DNA of 64,000 bases. Source: a virus. Of the stretch, positions 4,516 to 32,091 are shown one piece after another (position 1 is the first letter of the stretch; every line of letters starts with the position of its first letter). Position numbers and translations under genes: made by a program. The stretch is taken from positions 37,798-101,797 of the IMG/VR virus record IMGVR_UViG_3300043788_000131. One strand, given 5' to 3'. The notes under the pieces were generated by a model. It had not been told where the DNA came from. It saw only the letters and a program-made list of their open reading frames with translations, and made no database searches.

Positions 4516-5421
4516 TCACGGGATGTAGGGGTCGAGCTCCATGCCGCGCTCGTGCATGTCGTTCTCCATCGAGATTGCTTCGATGGCTTGGACAAGCCGC
4601 GTCACGTATTTCTGGTATTCGGTATCGTCCTTCATGAACTCGGCCGCTGCCGCAAGGCAGGCGACCCGCATGAGCTTCGGATACCGATTGGTCAGGAAGT
4701 TCGTTTCGTTGGTGGTTTTCACCAGCAGCGGGAGGCTCTGGTAATAGTGGAGCCTGCAGAGCGTCGTCTGAAATGCCGGCTGGTCGAACTGAATGCGCTC
4801 GTCCCAGATGGCCCAGAAGAGCGGTGTACCAGGAACGATGGCGTCGCAAATATAGGTGACGGAAGCCCCGCCTCCCGCACCAGACCCGCTTGGTGTCGTG
4901 CCCAGGATCGAAATGTCGATCGTGAAATTGTTGGCGTCGGTGATCCCGTTTATCGGGAATGTGCCGGTGATTGTTGCCCCGTTGAAGGCCGCGGCACCAG
5001 TTGTGTAAAACACCGACGCCTGGGTGAAACCGTGGCCGGGGAGGTTGACCGACACTGTGTTCGAGGAGGCCGTGGTGGTGAACGGGTTTGTCCCCAGCGT
5101 CCCCGAAGTTTCTGTGTAATTCCGGTTGTTTTTGACGTAGGCGGCGTCTCTATGCTTTACCCGCGTATTGAAGGTCGCCATCTGCAGGTCGCCGATCGGA
5201 TCGAGAAACCCGGTCGGCAGCGGCAGATAGGCTTGGTTGACCGCGAGCGTGAAGTCGTAGCTCGTCTTCATTTCACGCGTGCGCAGGCGGCCTTCGCCGT
5301 ACAAAAGCGCCTGGGCCTCGTCGATCACCGTGGCGGTGTCAAGTTTTGTGTAATTGATCCAGGTAGCGATCGCGCCCGGCGTGCCCTTGGGCGCCGAAAG
5401 GCTGGTATAGGACATCGCCAT
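4516..5421 (-). CDS. Head-tail adaptor / tail tubular protein A with inserted E1-FCCH-like domain
   Basis: IDEAQALL...RLRTREM...LPLPTGFL...TNFLTNRYPKL...AAEFMKDD pattern. Confidence 0.7.
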   Translation of the reverse strand: MAMSYTSLSAPKGTPGAIATWINYTKLDTATVIDEAQALLYGEGRLRTREMKTSYDFTLAVNQAYLPLPTGFLDPIGDLQMATFNTRVKHRDAAYVKNNRNYTETSGTLGTNPFTTTASSNTVSVNLPGHGFTQASVFYTTGAAAFNGATITGTFPINGITDANNFTIDISILGTTPSGSGAGGGASVTYICDAIVPGTPLFWAIWDERIQFDQPAFQTTLCRLHYYQSLPLLVKTTNETNFLTNRYPKLMRVACLAAAAEFMKDDTEYQKYVTRLVQAIEAISMENDMHERGMELDPYIP

Positions 5422-8355: not shown

Positions 8356-9348
8356 TTACGCTGCCGAGTCCCAGAACACGACGCGCGCGTTCAGGGCATC
8401 GGTGTGCACAAGGCCAAAGCCTCCCAGGTAGTACCAAGCAATACCCCGCGAGCGACCGTAGTCGCCGGGGATCTTTGCTCGGATTTCCTCGGGGATGCAG
8501 ATCGCTTCAGTGACGGTGTCACCGCCCATGAAGATGGCCCAGGACGAGAGATTGTTGGTCCACGCCTGCGCGACGTTGCCCCACGGATCGTAGGACGTCG
8601 CGTTTGCTGCTCCACCTTTCGGAATGAACGTCTGTTCAACGTATCTGGTGGACTCGTAACGGCCGATTTCGCCGTTAAAGATGTGCGCGAGACCCGTCTC
8701 CGTGTACTGATGAATAGTTTCTAAGCTATTCTTGAAGTTACGGAAGGTTGACGGATTCGACACGCAGACGTAGTCGTCGGCCGTGTAGGGCGGAATGTTC
8801 CGCTCTTTCATGGCGTCGACGAGCGCCTTGACATGCCCCGTGCCGAGCGCGACGTTATTTGTCACCGAGGCTGTGCCGTTGGTGTCCAAATTGATCGCGG
8901 TCGTTGATGTGCCAGACGACGGCTCCGCACGAAGAACCGTATTCTTGAACTGCAGATACGATTCGATGTCGAAGTATTTTCTGGCATCATCTTTTAGGGT
9001 CTTGTCGATGATGCTCGCGACCTGATGCTTCGCGAGAGCAACAAGCTTGCCGGTGTACGGCACGCTGTTGCCTGCTTCAAACACCGTCAACTGGTGCTGA
9101 ATGATCGTGAAGCCGGTTTCAGGAAGCGGTGCGGACTCGTCGAGACGACGGCCTTGGGTGCCCACATTGCTGTAAACGTCCCAATTATACTTGTCGCCTC
9201 TGTTGAGACCTTTCTTGGTGCCATCCTCCGCGTCGCAAAGCTGACGCATCTTCGTGAGGGGCTGTACCTGCTGACGAAGCACATCGCTGAGCTCGTCAGA
9301 GTACATGTAGCCACCCTCGGTGGGGATAGCCCAGAGTTGTCCTGCCAT
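8356..9348 (-). CDS. Major capsid protein (N4-gp56-like, HK97 fold)
   Basis: 330 aa after scaffold; EAGNSVPYTGKL, NGEIGRYE, DYGRSRGIAWYYLGGFGL motifs. Confidence 0.9.
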   Translation of the reverse strand: MAGQLWAIPTEGGYMYSDELSDVLRQQVQPLTKMRQLCDAEDGTKKGLNRGDKYNWDVYSNVGTQGRRLDESAPLPETGFTIIQHQLTVFEAGNSVPYTGKLVALAKHQVASIIDKTLKDDARKYFDIESYLQFKNTVLRAEPSSGTSTTAINLDTNGTASVTNNVALGTGHVKALVDAMKERNIPPYTADDYVCVSNPSTFRNFKNSLETIHQYTETGLAHIFNGEIGRYESTRYVEQTFIPKGGAANATSYDPWGNVAQAWTNNLSSWAIFMGGDTVTEAICIPEEIRAKIPGDYGRSRGIAWYYLGGFGLVHTDALNARVVFWDSAA

Positions 9349-9387: not shown

Positions 9388-10794
9388 TTAGATGCCGAGA
9401 ACCTGACCGCGCTTGCCGGCGCGATTCGCTTTCATCTGTTCGACGATTGCGGATCGGTCGCGCGGCGCGGCGGCCGCTTGCTGCGGCTGTCGTGGCACTG
9501 CTGAACGGGACGGCTGTGGCTGGATGGCCTCGCGTCTTGCATCGCGATTGACGACGATGCGCGGCGCGCCGCGTTGCGGGTCCGGGAGTGCCGGATCGGC
9601 CGGGGTTGCTGGTGCTTTGATCCCGCGCCATTCACCCACGGCGCGCGCAGCCTCGTTCAAGAGAACGTCAGGCGGACGCACGGCATGGCCGTTTGCACGG
9701 TAGTACTTGTGGGCCGAGGCGATGTCGGCTGGTGTTGTCGCTCGCCCTTCCACAAGGTTGGCGGGATCGAGCCCAAGCGCGACCAAGTCTTCCGCTTGCA
9801 AGTCGTACATTTGCCGCTCAAGAGCGGCCTGTGCGAGCTTGTCGGTCGCGAACTCGGGGTGGTCCTTCTTGAAGCTGTCGAGCACCTTCGCCGTGCGCGC
9901 ACCGTCATCACGCATGCGCTCATTGACGAGGGCGTTCTGAACCTCTTGGCGGACCTGATCCGGTTTTGCTCCCGCCATTCCTGCGATGGTGTTTCGCAAG
10001 AGGTCGCGGGCTTGTGCCGGATCGTCGCCGAACTGGATTGCCTCGATCAGCTTGGCGATCTGCTCGTCCTGGTTTTGGGCGGCAGGGTCAGGCTGTGGCT
10101 GTTCGGCTGGTTGCGTCTCTGGGGCGGCTTGGTGACCGTCCTGGGCCGGACGCGAAGCCCTAGTTCTGATCGAGGACTCAAGCTCGTTGATCTCCTTGAG
10201 CTTGGCCTTTGCAGCGTCGAGGATGTTGTCAGAAGCGAGCGCGATCTGCGCGTGCTTGACCAAATCCTCCTGCGATAATTCCATTTCCTTGCCGTTGACC
10301 TTGACCTTGAAGGTCGGCGGCGCGCGCTCTGGTTGATCAGGGTGCGCCAGATTTGGCGTACCCTCCGCACTTGCGACACTTGCGTCATCGGAAGTGTCTG
10401 GCGCGTCTGGGTTTTCCGGTGCCAACGGTTCGGCACCCGCTGCCTGTCGGAAGTCCTCCGGTAGGCCGCCGGAGCGCACGAAATCTTGGATGTCGTCGGT
10501 CTCGGGCTCATTCCTCTCGGCGCGGAATCGCGCGGTGATCGCGGCGCGCGTGTCGTCGTGCTTGCTGCGCACGGTCGGTGCCGGGCGTCCGGTGCTATCT
10601 GGCTGGGTTCCGGTGCTATTTGGCTGCGCGCCTGCGCCTGGATCTTGCGGCGAGCCGTCACCGGGCCCGAGTACAGCCTCAGTCTCGCCACCTGGAATCG
10701 GCCCCTGCGCCCCCTTTGCTCTTGTGTCCGCCTCTGCGGCCTGTGCCGCCTGCTGCGGCGTGTTCTGATGCGGCGTAACAACGGTGTCAGGCAT
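9388..10794 (-). CDS. Capsid scaffolding protein
   Basis: Acidic Pro/Gln-rich, FKVKVNGKEMELSQEDL motif, basic C-terminal helix, directly upstream of MCP. Confidence 0.8.
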   Translation of the reverse strand: MPDTVVTPHQNTPQQAAQAAEADTRAKGAQGPIPGGETEAVLGPGDGSPQDPGAGAQPNSTGTQPDSTGRPAPTVRSKHDDTRAAITARFRAERNEPETDDIQDFVRSGGLPEDFRQAAGAEPLAPENPDAPDTSDDASVASAEGTPNLAHPDQPERAPPTFKVKVNGKEMELSQEDLVKHAQIALASDNILDAAKAKLKEINELESSIRTRASRPAQDGHQAAPETQPAEQPQPDPAAQNQDEQIAKLIEAIQFGDDPAQARDLLRNTIAGMAGAKPDQVRQEVQNALVNERMRDDGARTAKVLDSFKKDHPEFATDKLAQAALERQMYDLQAEDLVALGLDPANLVEGRATTPADIASAHKYYRANGHAVRPPDVLLNEAARAVGEWRGIKAPATPADPALPDPQRGAPRIVVNRDARREAIQPQPSRSAVPRQPQQAAAAPRDRSAIVEQMKANRAGKRGQVLGI

Positions 10795-10807
10795 TGGGCT
10801 CCCCAAA

Positions 10808-10891: not shown

Positions 10892-13699
10892 TTAGGACGC
10901 TATGAAGTTGTGCGCGCCTGCAAGGTGTCCGTATTCAAACAGATCGTATTTGATCATGCCCGCATCGGTGATGATCTCGATGATGACAATCGGCATCTGA
11001 GCAAGGTTGTCGCCAGCCATGGTGTTGTCGTAGTACCATTCCAAATAACCGAAGATCCAATCGCCTACGGCCATGGCAGGAAGCGAATCGCCAGTTACTG
11101 AGCCCGACCAAGAGCCGGCCGACCAGGATCGCACCCCCGCCGTCTTCACGTTCACGCCGAGGGTGCGGGCATACCCCACGAACGCGGGGGTGTAGCCCTG
11201 AAGCGAGTCGCAAAACAGATTTTCGGAGCCGTTGGCGCCGGTGTAGGCCCGCAGGACGTTGATATTGATCGACGTAAGCGTCCCTCGGACCTGCATGTTG
11301 TTCGTCGCGCCGAGGAGCGGGGACACGTTCCCCGTCAATACAATGTGCCCGTAAGTGAAGCCAGGACCCCCGTCGCGGCTCGGGTTGCTGCCCATCTGCC
11401 AGTTCTGAAGGAGGTGGTGACCGCGGCAATTCTTGACTGTGATCTTCGGATAGGGATGGACCGCGATGATAGAGGGCAACGGGAAAGCGCTGGGCAAGCT
11501 GCCCTGCGTCCAACTCGGCAAGCTGGTCAGCGTGGTGTCGATCAAGATATTTCCGGTGCCAGCGACGCCCGGCGTATCGCTGCGCACGTTCAGGACCGTG
11601 AAGAACGGCGGACTTTGAAAGAACCCGCCCTCGGAAAACGCGCACCGCACCCCAGGAGCCGCCCACGGCACGAGGCTGGCGGGGCCGGTATTTGGTATCG
11701 AAAAAGTGCCGTTGGAAAACGTAAATGCAGAAATGTTGTTGGCATTTCCGAAGGAGTTTCCCCATCCCGTGAAGCTGATCACGTCGACGTAGCTGTTCTC
11801 GATATAAATGCTTTCAAAGGGACCGTTGCTGCGCGGCCCCGGCGTCAAATTGCCGATATAGGAGTCTCTGATGTAGGTGTCCTTCGGCGTGCCGTTGAGA
11901 TTGCCGATGTTGCAGCCGTCGATGATCAGTTGCTGCACTGACGAGCTCTGGAATAGAAGGGTGTTGTAGTAGCCGGTGATCTCGCAATTTCGGAACGTCA
12001 GCCGCTCGATGCACTTGTCGACCTCGATGTCGCCGCCCCCCTGGATGAGGCAGTTCTCGAAGGTGATGGACTTTGCCTGTGACGGTATCGGGAAGTTGCT
12101 CGATTGCAGCCCCGGCCATTTGCAGTCCCGATAGTATTTGTTCATGACGGGCGGCATGTCGCTACCGCCGAGGAAGGTCACGCCAAAGCAGGAAACGTCG
12201 CACTCCCACTGGCCGCCGAACATCTTAGTCATGTTCCAGACCGTGGCCGGACCGCCTTCATTCACGCCGAAAGAGTTGGCCGTGTATGCCGGATAGGTGG
12301 ACAAATACGGACCACCTCGCAGATAACTGTTTAAGAAAATCACGCCGCCGCTGACGGTGGTTACCTGTACGAACTCCATGAAGTACGGATTAGGAGGGAT
12401 GCCGCCGGCCTCGATGTCGAGTGCGCCTAGCAGCAGCCAATCACCCACGCTGAATTTTGAAGCGTCGCCGGAGTTGACTAGAGTCAGTTGAGTACTGTTC
12501 TGGCCGGCGCTCTGCACTAGAGCGGAGTTTGCTGCCCCATATTGATCATTGGTTCCGCCGAACTGGTTCAGGTTCCCGCTCAGCGACGCGCCGTAGCCAA
12601 AGATGGTGAGCTTCTTAATTCCGCGCCACAGGCCGTTCGAGTTTGAAACTGAGGTGTACGTGCCCGGCGGAATATAAAGAGCGACTTCTTTGCCCTGATA
12701 GGCTTCGGTAAAGGCCTGGAAAGCGGCGCCATCATCGCCACCATTGCCCAGCGCGCCGAAATCTTTGATGTTCACCAAGCCGCCCGAGATCGCACTGGGG
12801 TTGACGTAAGTGAGCGGCGTCCAAAGAACGATCTGCGAGATCGGCGTGAAGCCGGCTGGAAGCGTCAATCCGGTGGCCGTTGGGTCTACCGTGGCCCCGT
12901 CGCCGTTGCGGGCGAACTGCCCGATGATCCGCGATGTCGTTACGTTTATAGTAAAGGTTACGCCGCCGGTGCCGGCTCCCGGATCGTTGGCGGGATCACC
13001 ATTCCAGCTTCCGCCGGGGGGCTTGACCCAAATCAGCTTCGCGACCGGATCAACCGCGACGTAATAGGTCCCGTTCGGGGTTGACCCCGTGTTTCTGTGT
13101 CCGTTTGGCGCTGGTGGCTGGGCGTTGTTTTCAAAGTAGTAGTAGCCCGTGCCGTCAGCATAGAACCCAATCCCGAGTCCGAGGTAGTCGAGAAACATCG
13201 CATTGCCGGTGGGATTCCCGTCAATGCCGATGCCGAACCCGGAACTGCCGTCGAGCACGGTGAAATTCTGACCGATGGCGAATACATATTTCTGAGCGGT
13301 TGGAAGCGTGCTTGCGCTCCTAACTCCCGCTACGCCCACATCACCCGTGACGATATTGGGATACGCGGCGTCTGATCTCTGCGCCGTCAGATTGGAATTA
13401 GAAAAGATGACGGCCGGATTCGAGAGGTTGGGCGACCACGCAAAAGACGGTATCCGAGCTAGCGAGATCAGTTGCGTAGTCGGGTTCCACCAAAGCTGCC
13501 CGGCCTGCAGAAAAACTGGCGCTATGGTCGAGATCGTAATACCGCCGCTGCCTGCGCCCGCGCCCGCATAGAGCTCGGTGAGCATTGCGTTCAGTTTGTC
13601 GACGGCCTCATTCCACTTGTCGCCGAACTCTTGGCCGAGGCCAGTGTTGGGGCCGCTGAATGGCTCGACAAGGTTCTTGTTGATGGTCTGCCGGGCCAT
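10892..13699 (-). CDS. Fibre/spike: anchor + SPRY-like domain + pectate-lyase-like beta-helix (depolymerase-like)
   Basis: GDKWNEAVDKLNAMLTELY anchor; VAVD..AKLIWVK...WNG...P.G SPRY-like segment; VNIKDFGALGNG.DDGAAFQA beta-helix start. Confidence 0.75.
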   Translation of the reverse strand: MARQTINKNLVEPFSGPNTGLGQEFGDKWNEAVDKLNAMLTELYAGAGAGSGGITISTIAPVFLQAGQLWWNPTTQLISLARIPSFAWSPNLSNPAVIFSNSNLTAQRSDAAYPNIVTGDVGVAGVRSASTLPTAQKYVFAIGQNFTVLDGSSGFGIGIDGNPTGNAMFLDYLGLGIGFYADGTGYYYFENNAQPPAPNGHRNTGSTPNGTYYVAVDPVAKLIWVKPPGGSWNGDPANDPGAGTGGVTFTINVTTSRIIGQFARNGDGATVDPTATGLTLPAGFTPISQIVLWTPLTYVNPSAISGGLVNIKDFGALGNGGDDGAAFQAFTEAYQGKEVALYIPPGTYTSVSNSNGLWRGIKKLTIFGYGASLSGNLNQFGGTNDQYGAANSALVQSAGQNSTQLTLVNSGDASKFSVGDWLLLGALDIEAGGIPPNPYFMEFVQVTTVSGGVIFLNSYLRGGPYLSTYPAYTANSFGVNEGGPATVWNMTKMFGGQWECDVSCFGVTFLGGSDMPPVMNKYYRDCKWPGLQSSNFPIPSQAKSITFENCLIQGGGDIEVDKCIERLTFRNCEITGYYNTLLFQSSSVQQLIIDGCNIGNLNGTPKDTYIRDSYIGNLTPGPRSNGPFESIYIENSYVDVISFTGWGNSFGNANNISAFTFSNGTFSIPNTGPASLVPWAAPGVRCAFSEGGFFQSPPFFTVLNVRSDTPGVAGTGNILIDTTLTSLPSWTQGSLPSAFPLPSIIAVHPYPKITVKNCRGHHLLQNWQMGSNPSRDGGPGFTYGHIVLTGNVSPLLGATNNMQVRGTLTSININVLRAYTGANGSENLFCDSLQGYTPAFVGYARTLGVNVKTAGVRSWSAGSWSGSVTGDSLPAMAVGDWIFGYLEWYYDNTMAGDNLAQMPIVIIEIITDAGMIKYDLFEYGHLAGAHNFIAS

Positions 13700-13709
13700 G
13701 GCACGCGCC

Positions 13710-14606
13710 CTAATCAGACCAGGACGTCGGATAGCCCCAGAAGCGATACCAGTCCGCCTTGAGCGTCTCGTAGAAGATGCGGTTGAGTGCTGCCGCCCAT
13801 GGCGGCGTGCCGCCGCTCCCGGCGTTTCCGCTCACGAAGATCGGCTGCTCTTTGATGTCGAACTGATTGTCGGCCCCGAGTCTGATCCCCTTGAACGTGC
13901 CAACGCTGGAGCCAACGCCGATATGGGCTTTGGTAGCACCGATCGGGAACAGCGTGCCGCAGTTGACGAAGTCGCAGAAGTCAACCGCGACGTTGAGGAT
14001 GTTCTGCCCGGCCCACGCCGGCTCCAGGTCGAGGTTCGACTGCCCGGCGTTGGAGAACGTGCTGTTGGTGATCTTCACCCCATTGACGTCGATCAGCGAC
14101 GCGTTCTGTCGGTAGTTGCTGTCGAACACGACGTCGTTGATCGTGAGGTTGCTGGCGCCGATGGCTGTGAGGCCGTCACCGAAGCATTGGCTGACGGTCA
14201 ATCCGCCGTTGATCGTGACGTTCTTCGCCGCCGGGCCAAGGCCGATGCCGAAGCCCCACTGCCCTGCCGCGCCGCGAACGACGGGGTTTCCTGCGCCGCG
14301 GTCGCCGATGATCTTGCCCTTCCCGGTGATGACAAGGCCGTCCACGTTCTGCGCGAGCAGGATGACGTAGTGATCGGCCGCATTCGGGATGGCCTGGAGC
14401 GTGCCGTCGATCTGGAACGTGATCCCCGACTTCAGGGCGATGCCTGTGCGGCTGCTATAGTAGAGAGTTGGGCTGGCGATCGGGTTGATCCGGCATGTCG
14501 TGGCCTCCGGCACCCGCACGGTGTCGCCAGCTTTCGCGGCGTTGACCGCCGCCTGGACCGCCGCGGTGTCGTCCGTACCGGCGCCATAGACGTTTATTAC
14601 AGACAT
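13710..14606 (-). CDS. Right-handed beta-helix (pectate-lyase-like) protein
   Basis: GAGTDDTAAVQAAVN, GQWGFGI, CFGDGL, NYRQN, LDLEP motifs. Confidence 0.8.
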   Translation of the reverse strand: MSVINVYGAGTDDTAAVQAAVNAAKAGDTVRVPEATTCRINPIASPTLYYSSRTGIALKSGITFQIDGTLQAIPNAADHYVILLAQNVDGLVITGKGKIIGDRGAGNPVVRGAAGQWGFGIGLGPAAKNVTINGGLTVSQCFGDGLTAIGASNLTINDVVFDSNYRQNASLIDVNGVKITNSTFSNAGQSNLDLEPAWAGQNILNVAVDFCDFVNCGTLFPIGATKAHIGVGSSVGTFKGIRLGADNQFDIKEQPIFVSGNAGSGGTPPWAAALNRIFYETLKADWYRFWGYPTSWSD

Positions 14607-15019: not shown

Positions 15020-15271
15020 TTAGCGCCCAGGCTTCGGCGGTATGTGCTGGTAGCGTTTTGGGTCGTAATGCCTGCTCAGCATCCTCGCCAAACCTCGTTC
15101 CAGTTGACCGTCAGTCATCTGGTCGACGGCACTCCAAATCGTGTTGGCGCCTTCGGCGCGAGTCCCTTGGTCGAACCATCTGCGGATGTCGTGATGCTCG
15201 ATGTGACTGAGTATTTCTTCGTAGATACCCTTCTCGCTCATCATCCAAGCTTTGTTGGCCTTCTCGCTCAT
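15020..15271 (-). CDS. Hypothetical protein
   Basis: ATGA-coupled to the repeat protein; strong RBS. Confidence 0.55.
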   Translation of the reverse strand: MSEKANKAWMMSEKGIYEEILSHIEHHDIRRWFDQGTRAEGANTIWSAVDQMTDGQLERGLARMLSRHYDPKRYQHIPPKPGR

Positions 15272-17943
15272 CCTCCCCCTCCTTTGATCCCCAGGGCCGC
15301 GAGCGCGCGTAGCGCGTCGGCCATGTCGTCTTCGTCTGTGTTCTGCTGCTGCGCCTGGGCGGCCTGGAGCGCGCGCACCGCGGCGATTGCGTCGCCGAGC
15401 TCACGGGCGTCGGCCATCTGCCGTGCGAGGCCTGCCGCATCCGGCGGCGTGTATTCGCGGAACGATGGCAGGCCGGCCGAGGTGACGATGCGCGGCGGTC
15501 CGCGGAATATCTCTTGCGGCGGAGGCTCGACCGGCGCGCGTGTGCCGGGCACCTGCGCGTTGCGGCGCCGCTCCTCTTCCCACTTGACGCGGTCCCAGAT
15601 CGGCCAGACCGGCGGCTTACGCTCCTCGACGTCCCACGGCGGCTGCGGGAATTGCTTCGGCAGGACGCGCTTGCCGCCGCCAGGAACGAGTGCGGCCGGG
15701 AAGATGACTACCTGCGGCGGCCAGCTTGCCCACTGCTGCTCGATCGCCGGGAACGGCTTGGTGAACCGATCGACCTCGTAGCCGCGCCAGCCGTCAGGAG
15801 TGAAGAACTTGACGAATTCCGGCAGCCACGCTGCCCATTGCTGTTCGTGGGCCGGCGGATAGTGCTTGGTGAAGACGTCAACTTCGTAGCCGCGCCATCC
15901 ATCCGGGAGGAGGCTGACAATCTTGCCTTGCGGTGTGAACGAGGACCATTGCTGTTCGCTTGCTGGCGGATAGTGCTTCGTGAAAGCGTCGGTCTCAAAC
16001 CCGCGCCAGCCTTCCGGCAAGGTGCTGAAGATCTTGGTCTGTGGGAACCAACTTGCTTGGGAAATAATGAAGATGCTGTGGAACGCCACGTCGCCCGACA
16101 TGACCGGAACGGGCACGATACTGGACGACACAGTCGGCCAAGCGTCCCACTTCTGATGGGCGACCGGGAACGGCTTCGCGAATATGTCGGTCTCGAAGCC
16201 CCGCCAACCTTCCGGGAAGGCGGTCGCGACGATCACAATCTTCTGTGCCGGCCATGGCGCCCATTGCTGTAGCGCGACCGGGAACGGCGTGACGAAGCGG
16301 TCTACCTCAAAGCCGCGCCAGCCCTCCGGGAATACCGAAGTGATGGTGCCGCGCGGCTCGAAGGCCTGGATATTCTGCTGCAGCGCCGCCGGGAACGGCT
16401 TGGCAAATCGCGGCGGCGGCTCGTTCCACGCTGTCAGAACCGTGTTGTACGGCGGGATTGTCGGCCAGGAATCGAAGCGCTGTTGTGCGGCGGCGAGCGG
16501 CTTCGTGAACCTGGGCGTCACCTCCTGCCATGCAGTGAGCACGGTGTTGTAGGGAGGTGTCGCCGGCCAGGAATCCCATTTCTGTTCGCTGGCCGGCGGG
16601 AATGCCTTGGCAAACCGATACTCGTGGGAGCCGCGCCAGCCCTCGACGAAAACGACGGTGCCGATCGTGCCTTGGGGCTCGAAAGCATCCCATCGCTGCT
16701 GTGCCGCGGGCAGTGGTGCCTTGAGGGCGTAATCGAGCTCGAAGGAATAGAAGTCGTTGAAGACCGGCGGCGTGAATGGCACCAGCGAAGTCTGCTGGTA
16801 GATGACGTAGTAGTCTGAGAACACACCGTCATCGAGGCCGCGCCAGCCTTCGGGGAACGCGACGGTGGCCGAAACCTGCTCTGCCGGCCAGCAATCCCAT
16901 TGCTGCCGGGCCGCCGGAACCGGGCTCTTGAAAGCGTAGTCGAGTTCGAATGAGTAGTAGTCGTTGAACGTCGGGGGCGTAAACGGCACCAAGCTAGTTT
17001 GCTGGTAGATCACGCACAGGTCAGAGAAAACGACATCGTCGAGGCCGCGCCAGCCTTCAGGGAAGGCCACGGTGGTTGGGAACGGGACAAAACTATCCCA
17101 TCGCTGCTGCGATGCCGGGAAGGCGACCTTGAATAGATCGACCTCGTACCCGCGCCAGCCCTCGAATGGAACGGAAATTACCGCTCCCTGGGGCTCGTAT
17201 GCGTCGAATTTCTGTTCCGCGATCGGGAACGGCTTGGCGAACTTGTAGTCCTGCTCGACCCAGGCCGTGAGCGCAGTGTTGAATAGGCCGAACGGCCATG
17301 CGTCCCAGCGCTGCTCGGTCACCGGGAATCGCGGTGCGAACCGCGGTGTCAGTTCTTCCCAGGCCGTAAGCACGGTGTTGTACGGCGGCAGCGAGGGCCA
17401 GGAATCGAACCGCTGTTCCGAGGCGGCAAATGACTTGGCGAACCGCGGCGTGAACTCTGCCCAGGCGGTCAGGACCGTGTTGTAGGGTGGCTGTGCCGTC
17501 CAGGACGCCCATTGCTGCTGCGCCGGGTTGAGCGGCGGTATCTTGTTGGCGTCTAGTTGGATACCGCGCCAGCCTTCGGGGAAGATGCTGACGATGGTGC
17601 CCGCGGGCTCGAAGCTCTCCCACTTCTGTTGGGCTGCGGCGAGCGGCACCTTGAAGGCATCGGTCTCAAAGCCGCGCCAGCCTTCCGGATTGACGACGGG
17701 GGTCGACACCGCCGGCACCACCAAGGTCGAGGCTTGCGATATAACAAAAATGTTATGAAAGCAGACATCACCGCCCATCGAGGGTACGGGGACGGGCGTC
17801 GGCGGCAACGCGATGAAACTGGTTGTCTGAACGATCACCGGCAACGTAACGACAACGTCGCTGACAATCTCAGGCGCAAGGCCCCCAGGTGGCGTCGGTG
17901 GCGGTGGTAGTATGCTGCCGATCGGGTAAAGGACTATACGCAT
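15268..17943 (-). CDS. 891-aa Trp/Pro/Phe-rich modular repeat protein (putative virion scaffold)
   Basis: 11 x (E/D)GWRG, 5 x NT(V/A)LTAW, 2 x FND(Y/F)YSFELDY, many F.K.FP..QQ.W units. Confidence 0.8.
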   Translation of the reverse strand: MRIVLYPIGSILPPPPTPPGGLAPEIVSDVVVTLPVIVQTTSFIALPPTPVPVPSMGGDVCFHNIFVISQASTLVVPAVSTPVVNPEGWRGFETDAFKVPLAAAQQKWESFEPAGTIVSIFPEGWRGIQLDANKIPPLNPAQQQWASWTAQPPYNTVLTAWAEFTPRFAKSFAASEQRFDSWPSLPPYNTVLTAWEELTPRFAPRFPVTEQRWDAWPFGLFNTALTAWVEQDYKFAKPFPIAEQKFDAYEPQGAVISVPFEGWRGYEVDLFKVAFPASQQRWDSFVPFPTTVAFPEGWRGLDDVVFSDLCVIYQQTSLVPFTPPTFNDYYSFELDYAFKSPVPAARQQWDCWPAEQVSATVAFPEGWRGLDDGVFSDYYVIYQQTSLVPFTPPVFNDFYSFELDYALKAPLPAAQQRWDAFEPQGTIGTVVFVEGWRGSHEYRFAKAFPPASEQKWDSWPATPPYNTVLTAWQEVTPRFTKPLAAAQQRFDSWPTIPPYNTVLTAWNEPPPRFAKPFPAALQQNIQAFEPRGTITSVFPEGWRGFEVDRFVTPFPVALQQWAPWPAQKIVIVATAFPEGWRGFETDIFAKPFPVAHQKWDAWPTVSSSIVPVPVMSGDVAFHSIFIISQASWFPQTKIFSTLPEGWRGFETDAFTKHYPPASEQQWSSFTPQGKIVSLLPDGWRGYEVDVFTKHYPPAHEQQWAAWLPEFVKFFTPDGWRGYEVDRFTKPFPAIEQQWASWPPQVVIFPAALVPGGGKRVLPKQFPQPPWDVEERKPPVWPIWDRVKWEEERRRNAQVPGTRAPVEPPPQEIFRGPPRIVTSAGLPSFREYTPPDAAGLARQMADARELGDAIAAVRALQAAQAQQQNTDEDDMADALRALAALGIKGGGG

Positions 17944-17959: not shown

Positions 17960-19000
17960 TTAGTAAGCGATGATCGGGGAGCGGCGGATCAAACCTCCCA
18001 TTTGGCTGCTGAAGCTCTGGAGTGGGGCTGGCACTATCGGCGAATAGGTGAGGACGAGGATGCCGGCGCCGGCATTGAAGGCGCCTGCTGCATTGGTTCC
18101 GAAGTTGCCGACACCACCTGAGCCACCGCCGTACAAACCGCCGTTACCGGGTTTGCCCGCATTGGTCGCGCCACCATTTCCACCCGATCCGCCGCCGCCG
18201 CCGCCTGGGCCGGCCGTTGCCGAGTTGGATGTCTGGGTCCAGAGATTGTTGGTCGCTCCGTCGCCGCCTGCGCCGTTTGTGGACGTGCCTGCATTGTTGA
18301 ATGGGCCACCACCACCGCCGCCAGATCCCGTTCCGGCCGTGCCAGCCGTACCAGCCCCGCCGGGGCCGCCGGCTGCGCCGCCAGGGCCGCCTCCTGATCC
18401 ACCTTGGCCGTTGCCTCCAGTTGTCCCGGATGAGTTGGTAGTGTTCCCTTGAGCGACACCGATTGATCCACCATTCGAGCCGCCACCGCCTGCGCCGCCG
18501 CTGGATGAGGAGGTAGTATCTCCGGTGGTCGATCCGCCGGCCGCGCCTACACCGCTAGGACCGCCCGCACCACCGCCGCCGGAGCCTGGTGAAGCATTGG
18601 CCGTTGTCGCAGCACCGCCAGCGCCGCCATTGTTGTTGGCTGTTGTGCCTGTGCCGCCTGAACCGCCAGCCGGTGCCGTGCCACTATTGAATGTCGCGCC
18701 ACCTCCACCAAAGGCTTTAGTGCCTACAGTTGCGTTGTCGTCTTTCAATATCTGAGTGAAGGTGCCAGCAGTTCCGTTAGTGCTGTATGATCCGGGCCCG
18801 CCAGCGCCGATTTGACAGGTGCGTGTAGCTCCCTGTGTGTAAGCTTGGTTCTGGTTTTTCCGATATTCGCCGCCGCCACCGCCGCAAGGAAACGAGCCGC
18901 CGCCGCCAGCGCCTACGCATTCAACGAAATTATTCGCCGAGTTCCAGTCACTCGGAATTACCGTAGTCAGGCCGCTGGTGATGAAAACAACGGTTGCCAT
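17960..19000 (-). CDS. Glycine-rich (polyglycine-II-like) virion protein
   Basis: VECVGAGGGG start, GGxGG runs, GAGILVLTY end; Thr/Ser/Asn-rich. Confidence 0.75.
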   Translation of the reverse strand: MATVVFITSGLTTVIPSDWNSANNFVECVGAGGGGSFPCGGGGGEYRKNQNQAYTQGATRTCQIGAGGPGSYSTNGTAGTFTQILKDDNATVGTKAFGGGGATFNSGTAPAGGSGGTGTTANNNGGAGGAATTANASPGSGGGGAGGPSGVGAAGGSTTGDTTSSSSGGAGGGGSNGGSIGVAQGNTTNSSGTTGGNGQGGSGGGPGGAAGGPGGAGTAGTAGTGSGGGGGGPFNNAGTSTNGAGGDGATNNLWTQTSNSATAGPGGGGGGSGGNGGATNAGKPGNGGLYGGGSGGVGNFGTNAAGAFNAGAGILVLTYSPIVPAPLQSFSSQMGGLIRRSPIIAY

Positions 19001-26079: not shown

Positions 26080-26733
26080 TCACCAATTCCCAAAGCCCGC
26101 AGGCGGCGTGAAGGCGTAAGCTGATTGTCCAAAGTTTGCGATCACGGCCGCACCAGCGCCTGCGATGTCGGAGCCGGCGGCAAGAGCGCCGCTTGGGCCT
26201 CCCAGAGACCCAAAGCTCAAACCACTTGTGTTTGTGGCCGGGTTGGCGGAAGGATTTGCGTTCCAATTTCCGTTATCGACGTTGAACCAAATATCGTTGT
26301 TGCCAAAGTCGACCGCCATCTGGAAAACGGAGGCAAGTGTGCGGCCGGGAAAGGCAAAATTGTTGGGGACACTATTGGCGAAAACGATGTTTCCCGACGA
26401 GGGATACCACCCAACGCTATTGCTATCTATCCCAAGGTAATTGCTGGCGCTGGGAGTGAATGAAGCATTGGCGACGCCGATACCACCAAATGCGCTGACA
26501 AACTTGAACTCCGCGTAGAACTTGCCAGTGGCGGTCTTAAAATTCTTCGCTACTATGGGCGTGTCGCCAGCACTTGAGGTGGTCCATGTGAGGCCACCAT
26601 TTGAGATCACTCCATCAGCGAAATCGCCGTTGAACCAGATGTTGGTGCCACCGGTGCCTGTAGGCGGCACAAATAGGCCCCCCGCATTCTCGAAGTTGCC
26701 GATGAGACGCGCCCGCCTGACAATGAATTGCAT
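26080..26733 (-). CDS. SPRY/concanavalin-like (lectin-fold) virion protein with GNFENAGG N-terminal tag
   Basis: GKFYAEF...GIGVAN...MAVDF....IWF...NFGQSAYAFTPPAGF. Confidence 0.75.
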   Translation of the reverse strand: MQFIVRRARLIGNFENAGGLFVPPTGTGGTNIWFNGDFADGVISNGGLTWTTSSAGDTPIVAKNFKTATGKFYAEFKFVSAFGGIGVANASFTPSASNYLGIDSNSVGWYPSSGNIVFANSVPNNFAFPGRTLASVFQMAVDFGNNDIWFNVDNGNWNANPSANPATNTSGLSFGSLGGPSGALAAGSDIAGAGAAVIANFGQSAYAFTPPAGFGNW

Positions 26734-26734
26734 G

Positions 26735-27415
26735 TCAGCCCGCCTTGAACGACGCAATGACGGCGCTGTAGTCTGTCGCAGTCGTCCATGACGGTGCCCA
26801 AGTAACCGGGGCCGTCGAGTTGACGATCTGATATGACGGCGGTCGGCCGCCTGAACCTGATCCAAGCGGAGTAAAGCCAGCGCCCTCGGTCCAGGTGCCT
26901 AGACCATTGGTGTCATTTATTCCGCAAAAAACAATCTCGTTATTCGATGACAATGCACCAGTAGAAAAGGATGTTGAGGTTACGGCACTTCCATTCCCCG
27001 TGTGATTGGTCTTGTCGAGTCCGCCGTTGGCGCCGGATACTGCTACTGCAGAGATCGACACGCTCTGAGAGCCAGAGAACGTGATAACCGTCCCGACCGG
27101 CATGTGATTGACGTTCAAGCAAGACCAAAGCGTGTCCGCGTAGCTGACGCTGTCTTCTACGGCAAAGACGAAAGTATTGCCCGCATTGTCTGTCACTGTA
27201 GCTGGTAGAAGCGAAACAGACGGCGTAGTAAATGCGCCTATTTCCAGGACCACCAAACTTCCCGCAGGCACATCTCTTGTTGTGGTAAGGGTCGTTACAT
27301 TGTTTGCGCGTGCGGCAAGTAGGAAAGGAGTACCGATAGGGGCTTGCTGAGCGGTCATCCCGCCTGCGTTCTCGAAATTCCCGATGGTGCGGATGCGGCG
27401 GACGACGGATTGCAT
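26735..27415 (-). CDS. Ser/Thr-rich beta protein with GNFENAGG N-terminal tag
   Basis: MQSVVRRIRTIGNFENAGG; VTDNAGNT motif; visibly lower GC body. Confidence 0.7.
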   Translation of the reverse strand: MQSVVRRIRTIGNFENAGGMTAQQAPIGTPFLLAARANNVTTLTTTRDVPAGSLVVLEIGAFTTPSVSLLPATVTDNAGNTFVFAVEDSVSYADTLWSCLNVNHMPVGTVITFSGSQSVSISAVAVSGANGGLDKTNHTGNGSAVTSTSFSTGALSSNNEIVFCGINDTNGLGTWTEGAGFTPLGSGSGGRPPSYQIVNSTAPVTWAPSWTTATDYSAVIASFKAG

Positions 27416-27619: not shown

Positions 27620-29187
27620 TACCAGAGCGAGAGATCGTGCTTCGCGAGCGCGAGCGACGGCCGCCAATTCCCGATCTCGGATTGCCGGTAGAGGGTGACG
27701 CTCGGATACCAGGGCGAGTCGACGCGCCCGCCGAGTTGCCAGCGCCAGTCGGTCGAGAACTTCGGAATGAAAATCCAGGTCTGGATGCCGAGGCTCGCCG
27801 CCATGTGGGCGACCGAGGTGTCGGCGGTGATGACCAGATCGCAGTGCAGAAGCACGGCAGCGGTGTCAGCGAAGTCGGTCAAATCAAGGAATGTTATCGC
27901 CGGATGCGATAACTTCAGTAACTCCACGTCCTCGGCGTCCTCGGGGCGGACCTGCTGCACCGAGACAAAGTTGACGCCGGGCACATCGAACAGCGTCGCG
28001 AATTCCCGTAGCTTGAGCGACCGGTGGGCGTCGTTCTTGTGCTTGAAGAAGCCCGCCCAGCAAACCGCGACGTCGAGGTTGCCGTCACGGTACACGCGGC
28101 GGCCCCACTCGGCTGTCTTGTCCATCGGTATCTTCGGCACCCATGGCGGCACCGCGCGAATCTTCTCCTCAGTGTCAACGCCCAGGTAGCGCGCGAGCGA
28201 CATTTGCGCGACCCAGCAGTCGAAGGTCTCCTTGATGTCTAGCCCCACGGCTTCCTTGGCGCCGGTCCAGATGATCTTCTCCATCGGCTGCAGGACGCGC
28301 ACGCCCTCGATCTCGACGAGGTGGCGGACGGCGCGGTGGGCAACGAGGAAGATTTCGGCCGGATTTTTCCGCCGTAATTCAGGCAGGAAGCGCATGAACT
28401 GAATGCAATCGCCGACCCCCTGCTCGCAATGGACGACGATGCGCTTCCCTTCAATCGACTCGCCCGGCTTCCACTTGTTGTCGGTCGGCAGCCCGAAGTT
28501 GGCTTGCTGCATGTCCGAGGTGAGCAGCCGCGCTTCGTAGTGCTCCCAGCCCTCCTTGAATTCGCCTGTGAGCAGGTAATTGATGCCCAGATTGTAGTGG
28601 GCGTCGGCGTCATTCAAGCGGCTGACGGATTCGCTTAGCTCCTCGCGGAGCGAGAGCGAGCGCAAAAGCTCCTCGCGGCCCTCAAGATGGCGGCCGAGCC
28701 GCATGAGGACGATGCCGAGGTTATAGCGCGGGAACGGGTCATCCGGCTTGTAGGCGATGCCCTTGCGTAGCGCGTGCTCCGCATCCTTGTAGCGGCCGAG
28801 CCGTTCGAGCGTGTTACCGAGGTTGTTGAAGTGCAGCGCGCGCTCTTCGGTCGGCGCGCCCTGTTTCTCGCCGAGTGCGCACGCCCGTTCGAGGTCAGGG
28901 ACCGCCCTGGCCGGCTGCCCGAGTTGCGAGAGCGTCAGCGCGAAATTGGTCAGCGCCATTGCCTTCTTGGGGTTCGCCTCGCGCGCGCGCCAGAACCACC
29001 AGAATGCTTCGTGCAAGCGCCCGGCCTCGAAGAGCGAGGCGCCCAAGCGATTGACGATGTCCCAATTCTCCGGCTCGTGTTCGAGTATCCCCTTGAACAT
29101 CCCGGCGGCGCCGAGGTGGTTGCCTTGCGCTGCCATCCCGCGGCCGACTTCAAGCGCCTGCGGGATTGTCAGATCCATTTCCCCCAT
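27616..29187 (-). CDS. TPR-repeat + GT-B (GT9-like) glycosyltransferase, second paralogue
   Basis: NNLGNTL/YNLG TPRs; EQGVGDCIQFMRF, VCWAG...H.ND.HRS, DFADTAAVL..CDLVITADTSVAHMAASLG, DWRW...SPWYPS..LYRQ. Confidence 0.9.
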   Translation of the reverse strand: MGEMDLTIPQALEVGRGMAAQGNHLGAAGMFKGILEHEPENWDIVNRLGASLFEAGRLHEAFWWFWRAREANPKKAMALTNFALTLSQLGQPARAVPDLERACALGEKQGAPTEERALHFNNLGNTLERLGRYKDAEHALRKGIAYKPDDPFPRYNLGIVLMRLGRHLEGREELLRSLSLREELSESVSRLNDADAHYNLGINYLLTGEFKEGWEHYEARLLTSDMQQANFGLPTDNKWKPGESIEGKRIVVHCEQGVGDCIQFMRFLPELRRKNPAEIFLVAHRAVRHLVEIEGVRVLQPMEKIIWTGAKEAVGLDIKETFDCWVAQMSLARYLGVDTEEKIRAVPPWVPKIPMDKTAEWGRRVYRDGNLDVAVCWAGFFKHKNDAHRSLKLREFATLFDVPGVNFVSVQQVRPEDAEDVELLKLSHPAITFLDLTDFADTAAVLLHCDLVITADTSVAHMAASLGIQTWIFIPKFSTDWRWQLGGRVDSPWYPSVTLYRQSEIGNWRPSLALAKHDLSLWY

Positions 29188-29350
29188 CGTCTCCCCCGTC
29201 CTCCTCTGCAAGTTTCGCCATCAGCAAAGCGACGGCGGCTTCGTCATCAGCACGCCGTCGCCGTTCGCGAGCTCGTTCGAGCAGCGCGGCGTAATCGGTG
29301 GCGTTCGGAATTTCGTAGGTGTCGAAGGTCGGCAGGCTCAGCCCGGTCAT
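29150..29350 (-). CDS. Small protein with RRRRADDEAAVALLM motif
   Basis: ATGA-coupled to the portal stop. Confidence 0.55.
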   Translation of the reverse strand: MTGLSLPTFDTYEIPNATDYAALLERARERRRRADDEAAVALLMAKLAEEDGGDDGGNGSDNPAGA

Positions 29351-32091
29351 TCTTCCTGGAAACCGGCCACATCGCCGCGCTCGTTACGCAGCACGCGATG
29401 GGTACGCTTGCGCGCCAGATGCGCGATCATCGCCTCCATGCGGGCCATGCGGTCCTCGTTGCCGCCGCTCGGTTGATGGACCGGGGCGAGCGACATGCCG
29501 GGAGGCAGGACGGCGTGTGAAATCTTGCCGTCCGAACCGCGCACGAATTTGACTTGCGGCGAGGGCGCAGGGGGCGAACCCGATGGGCTCGCGCGGGCTG
29601 CACCACCACGGGGGGGCTGGGGGGAAGCGGCGCGGCCGGTCCCTGCACCCTCGCCTTGCTGTTGGGCCTGTTGCTCGTCGAACGTAGCCGATCTCTCCGC
29701 CATTTGCCGAGCGTGCGCGTCATTTTCTGCAGCGCGGCCAGCCTCGTTCTCCGCCATTTGCCGGCCGTGCACATCCTGCTCCACCTGATGGTGGTGTGCG
29801 CGCAGATCCAAGCCGTGGCGGAAGCCATGGTCGGCCGCTGAAAGCACCGTCTCGTGGTGCTTCATAGCGTGCTCGTGGCCCATCGCGCGGGCGTCCTGCT
29901 GGTGCCCGAGGATCATGTCGACCACGTCGGCTTCGAGCTCGCGCTTGCCGAGGGCAATCTTCGCCACGGCCGCGAGGCCTGTCAGCATCGAGGCTTGGCC
30001 CTGCTTTTTGTCCTTCTCGATCTTCGCCTGAATCGCCTGCATCTGCAGGTCGCCCATTGGATTGGGCTGGGCGTTGTCGTCTTTGATGAAGAAGCGATCG
30101 CCGCCGTCCTTGTAGCCGACAGCGCCGAACACCTCTTCGATGATGGCGTCGATGTTGAGCTTGCGCTTACCGCTCTGAAAATCCGGCGATTGCATCAGGA
30201 TCGGTGCGACGGTCTGCGCCGCGGTCGCGAATTTCGCCAGCCGCTGCTGCGGATCACCGGCACCAAGGCCGACGCTCACCCGCATCGTGATCTGCTGTTC
30301 GAGGAGATTGTCGTCGATCTGGTCGATGCCGAACTTCTCGAATAGCTGCGCGCGCTGCCCGCACAGCCCGAGCACCGTGGCGTCGTTCTCGTAATACTGC
30401 TCAAGGCGCATAAGCTGGGTCAGCGACGGCTCAGCCCATGTCATCAGCCATACACGGATGTCGAATTCTTGCACCGCATTGGCGGCGCCGGCAGCGAGCT
30501 TGAGGCCGCCGAGCGTCTTGCCGAGGGCCTGATTGTTCTCGACGTTGCCATAGTTCTGGACACCGGCGAGATCGTCCATTTCGATGTTGAGCTCACGGTT
30601 CATGACCGTGGAGTCCTGGGGCAACTGCGGCGCCTGCTCCCAGGTCACGTCGGCCGGGTCGTCGACCATGATGGAGGAGCCGAACGAACGGCGGCGGACC
30701 TGATCGAGGTCGATGCGCTTGCCGCGCTTGACCTTCGAGATCGGCATGACGTTCTGTTTGATGGCGTCAAGCTGCAGATTGCGCAGGTCGTTTACCTCGA
30801 CCTGCAACGGCTGCCAGGACTCGACCGGCGCCATCGGGAAGATGCGGTGCGATTCGAGTGCGCCGTACCCAAGAGCTAAGGGTCGTTCACCAAACTGTTC
30901 GGGATAGGCCTCGCTCGTGGGCTTGGGATCGGTCAAAAAGAACTGATCGCCGATCGTCCAAAACTGCCAATCCTCGCCCCCGATTCTCATAAACACTTCG
31001 TAGACCCAAATCACCTGGAACTCGGTCCCGGTCTGGGTCTCGTCGTAGCGGTCGAGGCCCACCTCACGCGCGCGGCGGATGGCCTCCATGTCCTGCTTGC
31101 CGAGCACGGAGGCGCCGCGAAGCTGCGCTTCGGTCAGATCGTGCCAGGGATTTACCGGCGAATCCTGCTTCTGGCGGATTTCGTCATACGTCATCGGGTA
31201 CTTGAGGATGATGAATGACGCCGTCTGCACCGGGTTGCGCCAGTCGGCGCCCGAGTGAATGACGAAGTTCTCCGGCGGGAAGTTCAGGATCTCGGGGCGG
31301 TCAACGGCGACCTCATAGACCGTGCGGACCTTGCGGACGTGCGCGCCGTCCTGGCCGGCTTCGAGGTAGTGCTCGTCTTTGATCTTGCGGTATTCGAGCT
31401 TCCAGAACTGCTTGGTGAGGCACAGTCCGGTGAGAAGCGCGTCCTGGCGCGCGCCCATCGCCACCAGGAACCAGGGGATGCCAGCCTTGCCCGAGGTCGT
31501 ATCGGTGCGGTAGTTGACCAATTCCTCCATGACAGAGGCAGCCGCGCGCTGCTTCGGGTCGCTTTCGTTGCCCGGCAGACAGGTGACGGCGTCGATCGAA
31601 TTAAAGAGCGAAGCAGAGACCGCGGCCATGTCCTTGCGGACCGCGGCGCGTGTCTTCGGGACAAACAAACGAGAGCGATTGCGCCACTCGGGCTTGGTGT
31701 ACTTACTTCCAACGAAATGCTCGTTGTGAAAGGCGCGAAGCGATTGCGACCATGCCCGCCGGTTGACCTGGGCGGTGTAAAGCTGGGCCTGCTGCTCGGC
31801 GATGCGCACGAGGCCGAGGAAATCCACATCCGGGATGTCTTGCTGCAATTCCGGGGGGTTTTCGGCGTCGTCCGCGGCTTGGTTTTCGAGCTCGTCCGGT
31901 TCCGGTTGCTGGTCGACGCCGGCCATGCCGCGCCATCTATTGTCGCGAACAAACCCGCCGTTGCCGGTTTTGCCGGCAAAGCGGCCGCGCGCGCCATCGT
32001 CTGGCGGAGTGCCGGGCGAGGAGAATGAGACCGGCAGCCCGCGCGTGCCGCGAAGCGGGTCCTCGCCGGGCGGCGTGGTGCGAAGCGCCAT
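29347..32091 (-). CDS. Portal protein (P22-like) with long His/Gln/Pro-rich C-terminal extension
   Basis: RSRLFVPKTR, LQ.EVNDLRNLQLD, KTLGG motifs; KFVRG.DG.I and VLRNERG.V tail motifs. Confidence 0.85.
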   Translation of the reverse strand: MALRTTPPGEDPLRGTRGLPVSFSSPGTPPDDGARGRFAGKTGNGGFVRDNRWRGMAGVDQQPEPDELENQAADDAENPPELQQDIPDVDFLGLVRIAEQQAQLYTAQVNRRAWSQSLRAFHNEHFVGSKYTKPEWRNRSRLFVPKTRAAVRKDMAAVSASLFNSIDAVTCLPGNESDPKQRAAASVMEELVNYRTDTTSGKAGIPWFLVAMGARQDALLTGLCLTKQFWKLEYRKIKDEHYLEAGQDGAHVRKVRTVYEVAVDRPEILNFPPENFVIHSGADWRNPVQTASFIILKYPMTYDEIRQKQDSPVNPWHDLTEAQLRGASVLGKQDMEAIRRAREVGLDRYDETQTGTEFQVIWVYEVFMRIGGEDWQFWTIGDQFFLTDPKPTSEAYPEQFGERPLALGYGALESHRIFPMAPVESWQPLQVEVNDLRNLQLDAIKQNVMPISKVKRGKRIDLDQVRRRSFGSSIMVDDPADVTWEQAPQLPQDSTVMNRELNIEMDDLAGVQNYGNVENNQALGKTLGGLKLAAGAANAVQEFDIRVWLMTWAEPSLTQLMRLEQYYENDATVLGLCGQRAQLFEKFGIDQIDDNLLEQQITMRVSVGLGAGDPQQRLAKFATAAQTVAPILMQSPDFQSGKRKLNIDAIIEEVFGAVGYKDGGDRFFIKDDNAQPNPMGDLQMQAIQAKIEKDKKQGQASMLTGLAAVAKIALGKRELEADVVDMILGHQQDARAMGHEHAMKHHETVLSAADHGFRHGLDLRAHHHQVEQDVHGRQMAENEAGRAAENDAHARQMAERSATFDEQQAQQQGEGAGTGRAASPQPPRGGAARASPSGSPPAPSPQVKFVRGSDGKISHAVLPPGMSLAPVHQPSGGNEDRMARMEAMIAHLARKRTHRVLRNERGDVAGFQEE

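Follow-up and report, generated by a model that had tools for sequence, protein, structure and literature searches.

This analysis concerns one gene, here called X, in a 64,000-nucleotide stretch of DNA (the window; positions 37,798 to 101,797 of IMG/VR virus record IMGVR_UViG_3300043788_000131) from an uncultured soil phage, whose record measures 101.8 kb and has a completeness rating of 96%. X encodes a long repeat protein, and we read it as the stalk-and-anchor subunit of a modular accessory (adhesion) appendage on the virion, a reading to which we give a probability of about 45%. In short, a C-terminal module of ~120-150 amino acids (aa), seen as an extended Pro/Trp motif followed by an amphipathic helix ending in ALG(L/I), would fix X to the particle, either at the capsid lattice or at the portal vertex. 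An array of 36-aa Trp/Pro/Gln units would form an extended stalk, the length of which would shift fast via tandem duplication and loss, and the N-terminal end would bear the distal binding domain. In some relatives, that domain (Gly-rich, beta-sandwich, SPRY/lectin-like, or beta-helix-like) would belong to the same polypeptide, while in this phage the binding domains would be encoded by separate genes of a genomic island, the Gly-rich one directly upstream of X. These separate proteins would join X non-covalently, probably at its conserved N-terminal tag.

X is a minus-strand open reading frame (ORF) of 891 open codons, with its ATG at 17943 and its stop at 15268-15270. The start has a plausible ribosome-binding site, and a gap of 16 nt lies between it and the stop of the upstream gene. 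A public gene call (P0002, 858 aa) places the start 33 codons downstream of the ATG at 17943 (17843-17943, minus strand). We favour the longer version since the N-terminal tag MRIVLYP is conserved. Two other N-terminal tags recur in the family, namely MLGFxxLGxLALGQ (in 12 proteins) and AFQxNAFQ (in eight).

15268-17943, minus strand: whole gene X (891 aa, P0001); orthologues with 63-87% identity keep the frame open
17920-17943, minus strand: N-terminal tag MRIVLYPI (residues 1-8); the pattern M-x-R-x-[IV]-L-Y-[PQ] opens at least 36 family proteins

The C-terminal module, missed by the initial annotation (a model's reading of the sequence, which had concentrated on the repeats), is the most informative part of X. 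Its last 120-150 residues, rather than the repeat, are the conserved signature of the family. The module opens with PGxGKR (PGGGKR in X) and continues with the Pro/Trp motif (Y)LPEPPW(D/E)xKxxKPxRP(I/V)WD(R/K), a PPPLPP stretch, and LPxFxxY/LVPxD (LPSFREY in X), after which comes a helix finishing D-x-S-D-A-x-A-x-L-R-A-L-G-L-I. Across the 20 diverse sequences of the module alignment, K-P-x-x-P-x-W-D is invariant. When AlphaFold2 was given residues 530-891 with 121 natural homologues, the C-terminal ~120 residues were predicted confidently, and the repeats reached a predicted local distance difference test score (pLDDT) of 35-50.

15271-15717, minus strand: C-terminal module of X (residues 743-891), pLDDT 72-97
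15589-15618, minus strand: core motif KPPVWPIWDR (residues 776-785)
15295-15438, minus strand: long predicted helix (residues 836-883, 48 residues), pLDDT >90, with two copies of D-x-x-D-A-x-A-x-L-x-A-L-G

A word-indexed search for relatives of X returned nine proteins only; a profile run exhaustively over 1.84 billion representatives gave 134, of which 74 had an E-value below 1e-10. The members of the family are all metagenomic, and among 50,697 phage records tblastn found no match to X. Within the family set of 147 collected proteins, 95 have the C-terminal module, at the extreme C-terminus in every case (95/95) and in proteins of 113-1000 aa. GW/QQW units also occur in 44 of these 95; the remaining 51 have other Pro/Trp repeats (e.g., QPDPWVY...QPYAPR in L007), other domains, or just an N-terminal tag of 15-40 residues. 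Another 44 of the 147 proteins have units with a different C-terminus or are fragments. Because each occurs without the other in this set, units and module are separable.

The array itself had been described as a combination of ~30-aa units, in which a constant half is preceded by one of three interchangeable halves. The motif counts behind that description are right: GWRG occurs 11 times, YNTVLTAW four times (plus one copy that reads FNTALTAW), and FND[YF]YSFELDY twice, and two punctuating segments, GDVxFHxIFxISQAS and VFSDxxVIYQQTS, are present in two copies each. In 2000 residue shuffles, the commonest 4-mer had a mean count of 2.1 and a maximum of 5, against 11 observed for GWRG. The units are longer than described, X containing 18 of ~36 aa according to a profile made from 14 clear examples. 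The same profile gives 22 and 20 units in X orthologues and 135 full-length 36-aa units across 76 proteins. Their consensus is P-x-G-T-I-x-S-x-F-P-E-G-W-R-G-x-x-x-D-x-F-A-K-P-F-P-A-A-x-Q-Q-F/W-x-x-F/W, with Q30 conserved at 99%, G12 and F21 at 85%, and W13 at 81%; Thr/Ser occupies positions 4 and 7 in 44-68% of the units. Nor do the three halves hold up as interchangeable elements. TVLTAW-E aligns with TIVSIFPEGWRG across a 5-residue gap in the unit alignment, and because GWRG, NTVLTAW, and FND align together, we regard them as diverged subtypes (G, N, and F) of one unit. The FND type forms the second half of a 67-69-aa super-unit, composed of a G unit, a VFSD segment, FND, and the constant half.

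17728-17772, minus strand: first punctuating segment GDVCFHNIFVISQAS (residues 58-72)
15718-17715, minus strand: array of 18 units of ~36 aa (residues 77-742), in the order G G N N N G [G-V-F][G-V-F] G N N G G V G G G
16678-17085, minus strand: two 67-69-aa super-units (residues 287-422); youngest duplication, 207-bp period with 78% matches
16045-16134, minus strand: second punctuating segment, with GDVAFHSIFIISQAS (residues 604-633)

Tandem Repeats Finder places the two youngest DNA duplications of X at periods of 207 and 111 bp. The frame V G G N N N G ... G N N G G V G G G, followed by the C-terminal module, is constant among close orthologues, which differ from one another by gain or loss of whole units in its middle; this is the pattern of unequal recombination. 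Such whole-unit differences between orthologues resemble those of other repeat-built shafts. N and F units with known upstream context come from one lineage only. In composition, the array is 18.4% aromatic, 12% Pro, and 12.4% Ser+Thr, with an isoelectric point of 4.9. The 18% of aromatic residues, together with ~10 strongly conserved positions per 36 aa, argues against a passive disordered spacer. A mucin-like glycoprotein was also considered and set aside in view of the low Ser+Thr (only 12.4%) and high aromatic (18.4%) content.

The initial annotation had not recognised the repeat family, and our database comparisons agree with it. Searches of X gave nothing significant in Pfam-A (best E 0.068, below the cut-off), 25 residues of a family of unknown function in PHROGs v4 (best E 0.0021), and no match in NCBIfam. 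None of the 20 members of the module alignment matched PHROGs (0/20). Sequence and profile searches of the PDB returned nothing significant, with no hit for alignment A2 and a best E of 0.089 for A3, and the ESM Atlas held no usable match for whole X or for the C-terminal module. By these profiles, neither the stalk unit nor the anchor seems to have a detectable relative among described families. The claim that the protein has no globular character except at the C-terminus likewise fits AlphaFold2. With a 9-sequence alignment, whole X reached a mean pLDDT of 28.8, and no fold was predicted over the repeats (pLDDT 25-50 with the 9- and 121-sequence alignments, all monomer predictions). A VIA-align structure search with the model retrieved only unspecific long-helix or coiled-coil matches with Z of 5 or less. 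From these models, the repeats could be disordered, acquire order upon binding a partner, or adopt a fibrous fold confined to an oligomer; the proposed stalk would be of the second or, as we suppose, the third kind.

The N-terminal end is where binding domains enter the picture. Two family members carry, in one polypeptide, domains that are separate genes in the window.

26735-27415, minus strand: 226-aa beta protein; P0065 has two copies of its domain at the N-terminus
26080-26733, minus strand: SPRY-like protein of 217 aa that shares its 19-aa leader with the preceding gene; its domain occurs in P0065
17960-19000, minus strand: next gene upstream of X (16-nt gap), encoding a Gly-rich 346-aa protein; P0026 carries its N-terminal domain as a fusion

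P0065 (974 aa) consists of two beta-protein domains, a SPRY domain, Pro/Trp repeats, and the C-terminal module, in that order. Its two beta-protein domains are 44% and 38% identical to the product of gene 26735-27415 (E 3e-30 and 8e-25), and its SPRY domain matches that of gene 26080-26733 (E 1e-9; the Pfam SPRY match is weak, E 8.7e-5). P0026 (552 aa) has a Gly-rich domain, units with FAKPFP..QQF, and the C-terminal module. The Gly-rich domain corresponds to the N-terminus of the gene 17960-19000 family by profile comparison (hhalign probability 96.5%, E 1e-9), a correspondence that plain BLASTP between the two proteins missed owing to composition. Additional N-terminal domains precede repeats or the C-terminal module in P0137, P0109, P0117, P0035, P0042, and P0046. 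Binding domain, array, and C-terminal module are independent of one another, and in every fusion seen the payload stands at the N-terminal end, never along the array. The payloads look like binding modules rather than enzymes (SPRY, Gly-rich, and LamG-like in L002). The Gly-rich gene and X are also adjacent in the distant relative L006, where they overlap by one base; elsewhere among the relatives, X is directly preceded by a payload-like gene of another kind, such as that of the LamG-like protein of L002.

The initial annotation had proposed X as a possible docking scaffold. The fusions lend indirect support to a link between X and its neighbouring small proteins, one that would be made at the N-terminal end instead of through single units. 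Of that proposal, the physical association is supported in part, and the code of three address types, setting partner and number, is not supported. Separate Gly-rich proteins have a C-terminal tail of ~25 residues ending in ...IIAY, ...MVAY, or ...MVPYW, and in X ~76 N-terminal residues precede the first unit. Neither stretch is found at the junction of the fused P0026, and on the evidence of this one fusion both are candidate docking elements. As a separate observation, the adjacent genes within 26080-27415 (minus strand) begin alike, with the 19-residue leader MQxxVRRxRxIGNFENAGG, and continue into unrelated bodies (one a beta-sandwich, the other SPRY-like). The IGNFE core of this leader is absent from the rest of the window, from the related loci that were read, and from the family proteins, and as a putative copy of the P0065 repeat unit the leader of genes 26735 and 26080 scored no better than shuffles (250 and 48 of 1000).

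X sits in the late structural operon, between the portal and the scaffold-like and major capsid genes, and is translationally coupled to its neighbours. The large genes of this region all lie on the minus strand, in the order portal, island of ~18 kb, scaffold-like gene, and major capsid gene.

29347-32091, minus strand: portal (PHROG 1216)
29150-29350, minus strand: unannotated 66-aa ORF, the ATG of which overlaps the portal stop (ATGA); C-terminal module profile E 5e-4
15020-15271, minus strand: 83-aa gene, coupled to X by an ATGA overlap; also in L001 and L003
14620-15018, minus strand: 132-aa helical acidic protein, following X in 7/7 relatives examined
9388-10806, minus strand: scaffold-like protein gene
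8356-9348, minus strand: major capsid protein gene (PHROG 1357), uninterrupted
4516-5421, minus strand: SU10-type adaptor (PF24175), further downstream

The TGA stop of X overlaps the ATG of the 83-aa gene, and the terminal KGGGG codons of X (GGAGGGGGAGG, 15268-15282, minus strand) double as the Shine-Dalgarno sequence of that gene; the unusual C-terminal Gly tail of X may be a by-product of this coupling. Besides X, the 83-aa gene, and the 132-aa gene, the island holds two TPR + GT9-like proteins, an FkbM-like methyltransferase, several small beta proteins, two Gly-rich proteins, a beta-helix protein, and a pectate-lyase-like protein. The operon of X additionally encodes a sugar epimerase and a GT-A, beside the TPR + GT9-like proteins (whose GT9-like profile matches are weak, E about 1e-4).

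Gene order was read in seven related contigs (L001, L002, L003, L005, L006, L007, and L010). X is followed by the 132-aa gene in 7/7, and the scaffold and capsid genes come next in 6/7, the L002 contig ending before them. Upstream sequence is available for six loci (the window, L002, L005, L006, L007, and L010), and TPR-GT genes occur alongside X in every one. While the capsid proteins of these relatives are 84-99% identical, X is only ~30% identical beyond the closest ones, and its length varies widely (346, 354, 428, 714, 740, 891, 937, and 1000 aa); L002 has an additional 249-aa paralogue. The closest isolated phages by portal are Vibrio phages (31% identity), which have portal, small gene, scaffold, and capsid without the island. 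Neither the 132-aa nor the 66-aa protein could be aligned with the small post-portal gene of Vibrio phage D279, and their equivalence to it was rejected. L010 (JBKQHQ010000208.1, 32.8 kb), in which the gene order is unchanged and the capsid protein is 90% identical to that of the window, is a contig binned in a Xanthobacteraceae metagenome-assembled genome, which is a weak hint that this family is the host group of the phage clade.

Several points weigh against a virion appendage. Phage fibres are usually anchored N-terminally, and the conserved end of X is C-terminal. As AlphaFold2 gives the repeats no fold, a stalk would require an oligomer or a partner, and each fusion type rests on a single protein. 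The family is metagenomic throughout, and X is a putative virion protein. The existence of proteins of 113-190 aa that are little beyond the C-terminal module suggests a function for it beyond anchoring, and the location next to the scaffold gene would suit an internal head protein just as much. In that alternative, the module would target X to the procapsid via the scaffold or the portal, and the unfolded array would be stored with the DNA and exit through the portal as a pilot or ejection protein. We consider this possible, though on balance unlikely. It gains from the place of X directly before the 132-aa, scaffold, and capsid genes, from the predicted lack of fold (which would suit passage through the portal channel), from the minimal module-only proteins, and from the portal-coupled 66-aa ORF. 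This ORF ends in LPTFDTYEIP...acidic helix, resembling the last third of the C-terminal module, and its product could bind the partner of that module. Yet the fused domains are lectin- or adhesin-like (SPRY, Gly-rich, beta-sandwich) and not the enzymes typical of injected proteins, lengths range from 113 to 1000 aa alongside near-identical capsid proteins, and the module has no profile similarity to the scaffold (hhalign probability 0.3%) or to the 132-aa protein (below 1%). X as the scaffolding protein itself was set aside, a separate scaffold-like gene being present at 9388-10806. The same lack of similarity to the scaffold, joined by the covalent payload fusions, makes it improbable that X is a non-virion assembly factor, i.e., a template or chaperone that organises Gly-rich/lectin-like proteins or glycosylation enzymes and is then discarded. 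Such fusions are unexpected in a discarded chaperone unless it is cut at GxGKR, and family profile searches found no protease in the module; the gene does adjoin the scaffold region, a stable fold is not predicted, and the C-terminal helix could pair with scaffold helices.

Other alternatives assign the function to the units. If GWRG, NTVLTAW, and FND each bound a different neighbour, so that unit order and number set the decoration, as the initial annotation suggested, the strong conservation seen in the units would be expected, and the island is indeed rich in small beta, lectin-like, and Gly-rich proteins, two of which have a common N-terminal leader. The fusions tie such proteins to X-type proteins, and docking peptides are known from the secondary receptor-binding proteins of Klebsiella podophages (PMC13352976). 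However, the subtypes are alignable variants of one unit that is gained and lost in tandem on a fixed frame, relatives whose units are all of the G type retain the gene order around X, and near-identical phages have 18, 20, and 22 units with the same downstream genes. Moreover, the payload is N-terminal in all fusions, and the common leader occurs only twice and bears no significant likeness to the repeat units; we therefore give little credence to an address code. A glycan acceptor, on the other hand, would be compatible with the appendage. Here, the two TPR-glycosyltransferases would dock on the Pro/Trp motifs and glycosylate the Thr/Ser of the units, yielding a glycosylated coat or fibre. 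The TPR + GT9-like pair shares an operon with X, together with the FkbM-type methyltransferase, sugar epimerase, and GT-A; the pairing recurs in 6/6 loci; Thr/Ser is frequent (44-68%) at unit positions 4 and 7; and O-glycosylation of proteins under the guidance of a TPR domain has been established in the case of FlmG and flagellins (PMC7591256). Against this stand the mere 12% Ser+Thr of the array (far from mucin-like) and the Gly-rich, Thr/Ser-loaded neighbours, which are at least equally good candidate acceptors, and the co-occurrence is not independent evidence because all contexts belong to one phage clade. Acceptance of glycans by X has, in our estimate, a low probability. Between these two ideas lies a rather unlikely one, in which the array is a programmable display rail with units serving as docking or glycosylation sites read by TPR domains or by the leaders and tails of small beta proteins. 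Were it true, gain, loss, and subtype of units could retune the number and kind of exposed ligands or glycans within a few generations. Finally, a multi-core precursor cut into ~18 peptides, which the initial annotation had offered as a second choice, is scarcely credible. Tandem units and nearby modifying enzymes are all that speaks for it; the units are widely divergent and have no conserved flanking cleavage sites, profile searches of the operon showed no leader, protease, cyclase, exporter, or maturase nearby, and the conserved part is a C-terminal module that unit-free proteins also possess.

Returning to the appendage, known systems offer partial parallels. The Hoc-type head fibres of T4 have a C-terminal capsid-binding part, projecting repeated modules, a dispensable adhesive role, and fast evolution. 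The conserved C-terminal module of X is consistent with this kind, capsid binding by it being only proposed, but Hoc consists of folded Ig-like domains in fixed number, whereas X has from 4 to >20 Trp/Pro units without predicted fold, and a Pfam search for an Ig-like profile in X found no match. In the triple beta-spirals of adenovirus fibre and reovirus sigma1, short repeats with conserved hydrophobic and Pro/Gly positions build a shaft, and repeat number sets its length. The fold of such shafts exists only in the oligomer, and monomer predictions fail as a consequence. Their unit is ~15 aa as opposed to 36 aa in X, the motif differs, and no structural or sequence match was found. N-terminally anchored tail fibres and tailspikes (T7 gp17-like, T4 gp10-like) were rejected as models, since the conserved module of X is C-terminal and no anchor-domain profile matched. 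The same holds for fibres with a Peptidase_S74 C-terminal chaperone; there was no Pfam match, and the module is a Pro-rich stretch plus one helix.

Klebsiella podophages of the KP32, K11, and KP34 type have branched systems, in which a primary receptor-binding protein with an anchor and a branching domain receives a secondary one through a conserved docking peptide (PMC13352976). A particle-anchored protein carrying exchangeable binding proteins is also what we propose for X; in both, the partners are encoded adjacently, and fused and split versions are conceivable. The Klebsiella anchors, however, are N-terminal, tail-bound, and of known folds, whereas the conserved end of X is C-terminal, its gene lies in the head module, and its stalk would be a new 36-aa repeat without predicted fold; no sequence relation between the two was found. 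The gp38 adhesin tips of T-even phages are polyglycine-rich and distal on the fibre (PMC12032242, PMC6851490). This likeness belongs to the Gly-rich neighbour and fusion partner, not to X, and consists of Gly runs between variable Thr/Ser/Asn loops, a compositional analogy only. FlmG of Caulobacter, a TPR-guided flagellin O-glycosyltransferase (PMC7591256), is a TPR-glycosyltransferase fusion acting on a nearby-encoded repetitive structural protein and may serve as a model for the island enzymes acting on X, although the latter match GT9-like profiles only weakly (E about 1e-4). With its polarity reversed, its repeat and anchor lacking detectable relatives, and its gene in the head module, X is a member of none of these systems.

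If our proposal is right, a clade of soil phages (possibly of Xanthobacteraceae) assembles adhesion appendages from three freely recombining parts, namely a distal binding domain, a repeat stalk with a length that changes by unequal recombination, and a C-terminal anchor encoded in the head module. This would be a new building plan for phage host recognition, and it would supply two new profile models with which metagenomic viruses can be annotated. Comparing split with fused versions would offer a natural experiment in the evolution of non-covalent docking, whether out of one polypeptide or towards it, and the adjoining TPR-glycosyltransferases are a candidate virion-glycosylation system outside actinophages.

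Two genes between the 132-aa and scaffold genes vary among relatives. The close relatives L001 and L003 lack the 935-aa pectate-lyase-like gene (10892-13699, minus strand), and for the 298-aa beta-helix gene (13710-14606, minus strand) no homologue was detected in the available sequence of L002, L005, L006, L007, and L010. Both look like recently acquired depolymerase or tailspike cassettes. The major capsid gene, in turn, is split in relatives into two or three pieces ~0.2-1.4 kb apart (L005:10436-11516 and 12643-12979; L006:11571-13559; L007:10172-13588), and in L005 the breaks coincide with two group I introns (RF00028, 51 and 68 bits).

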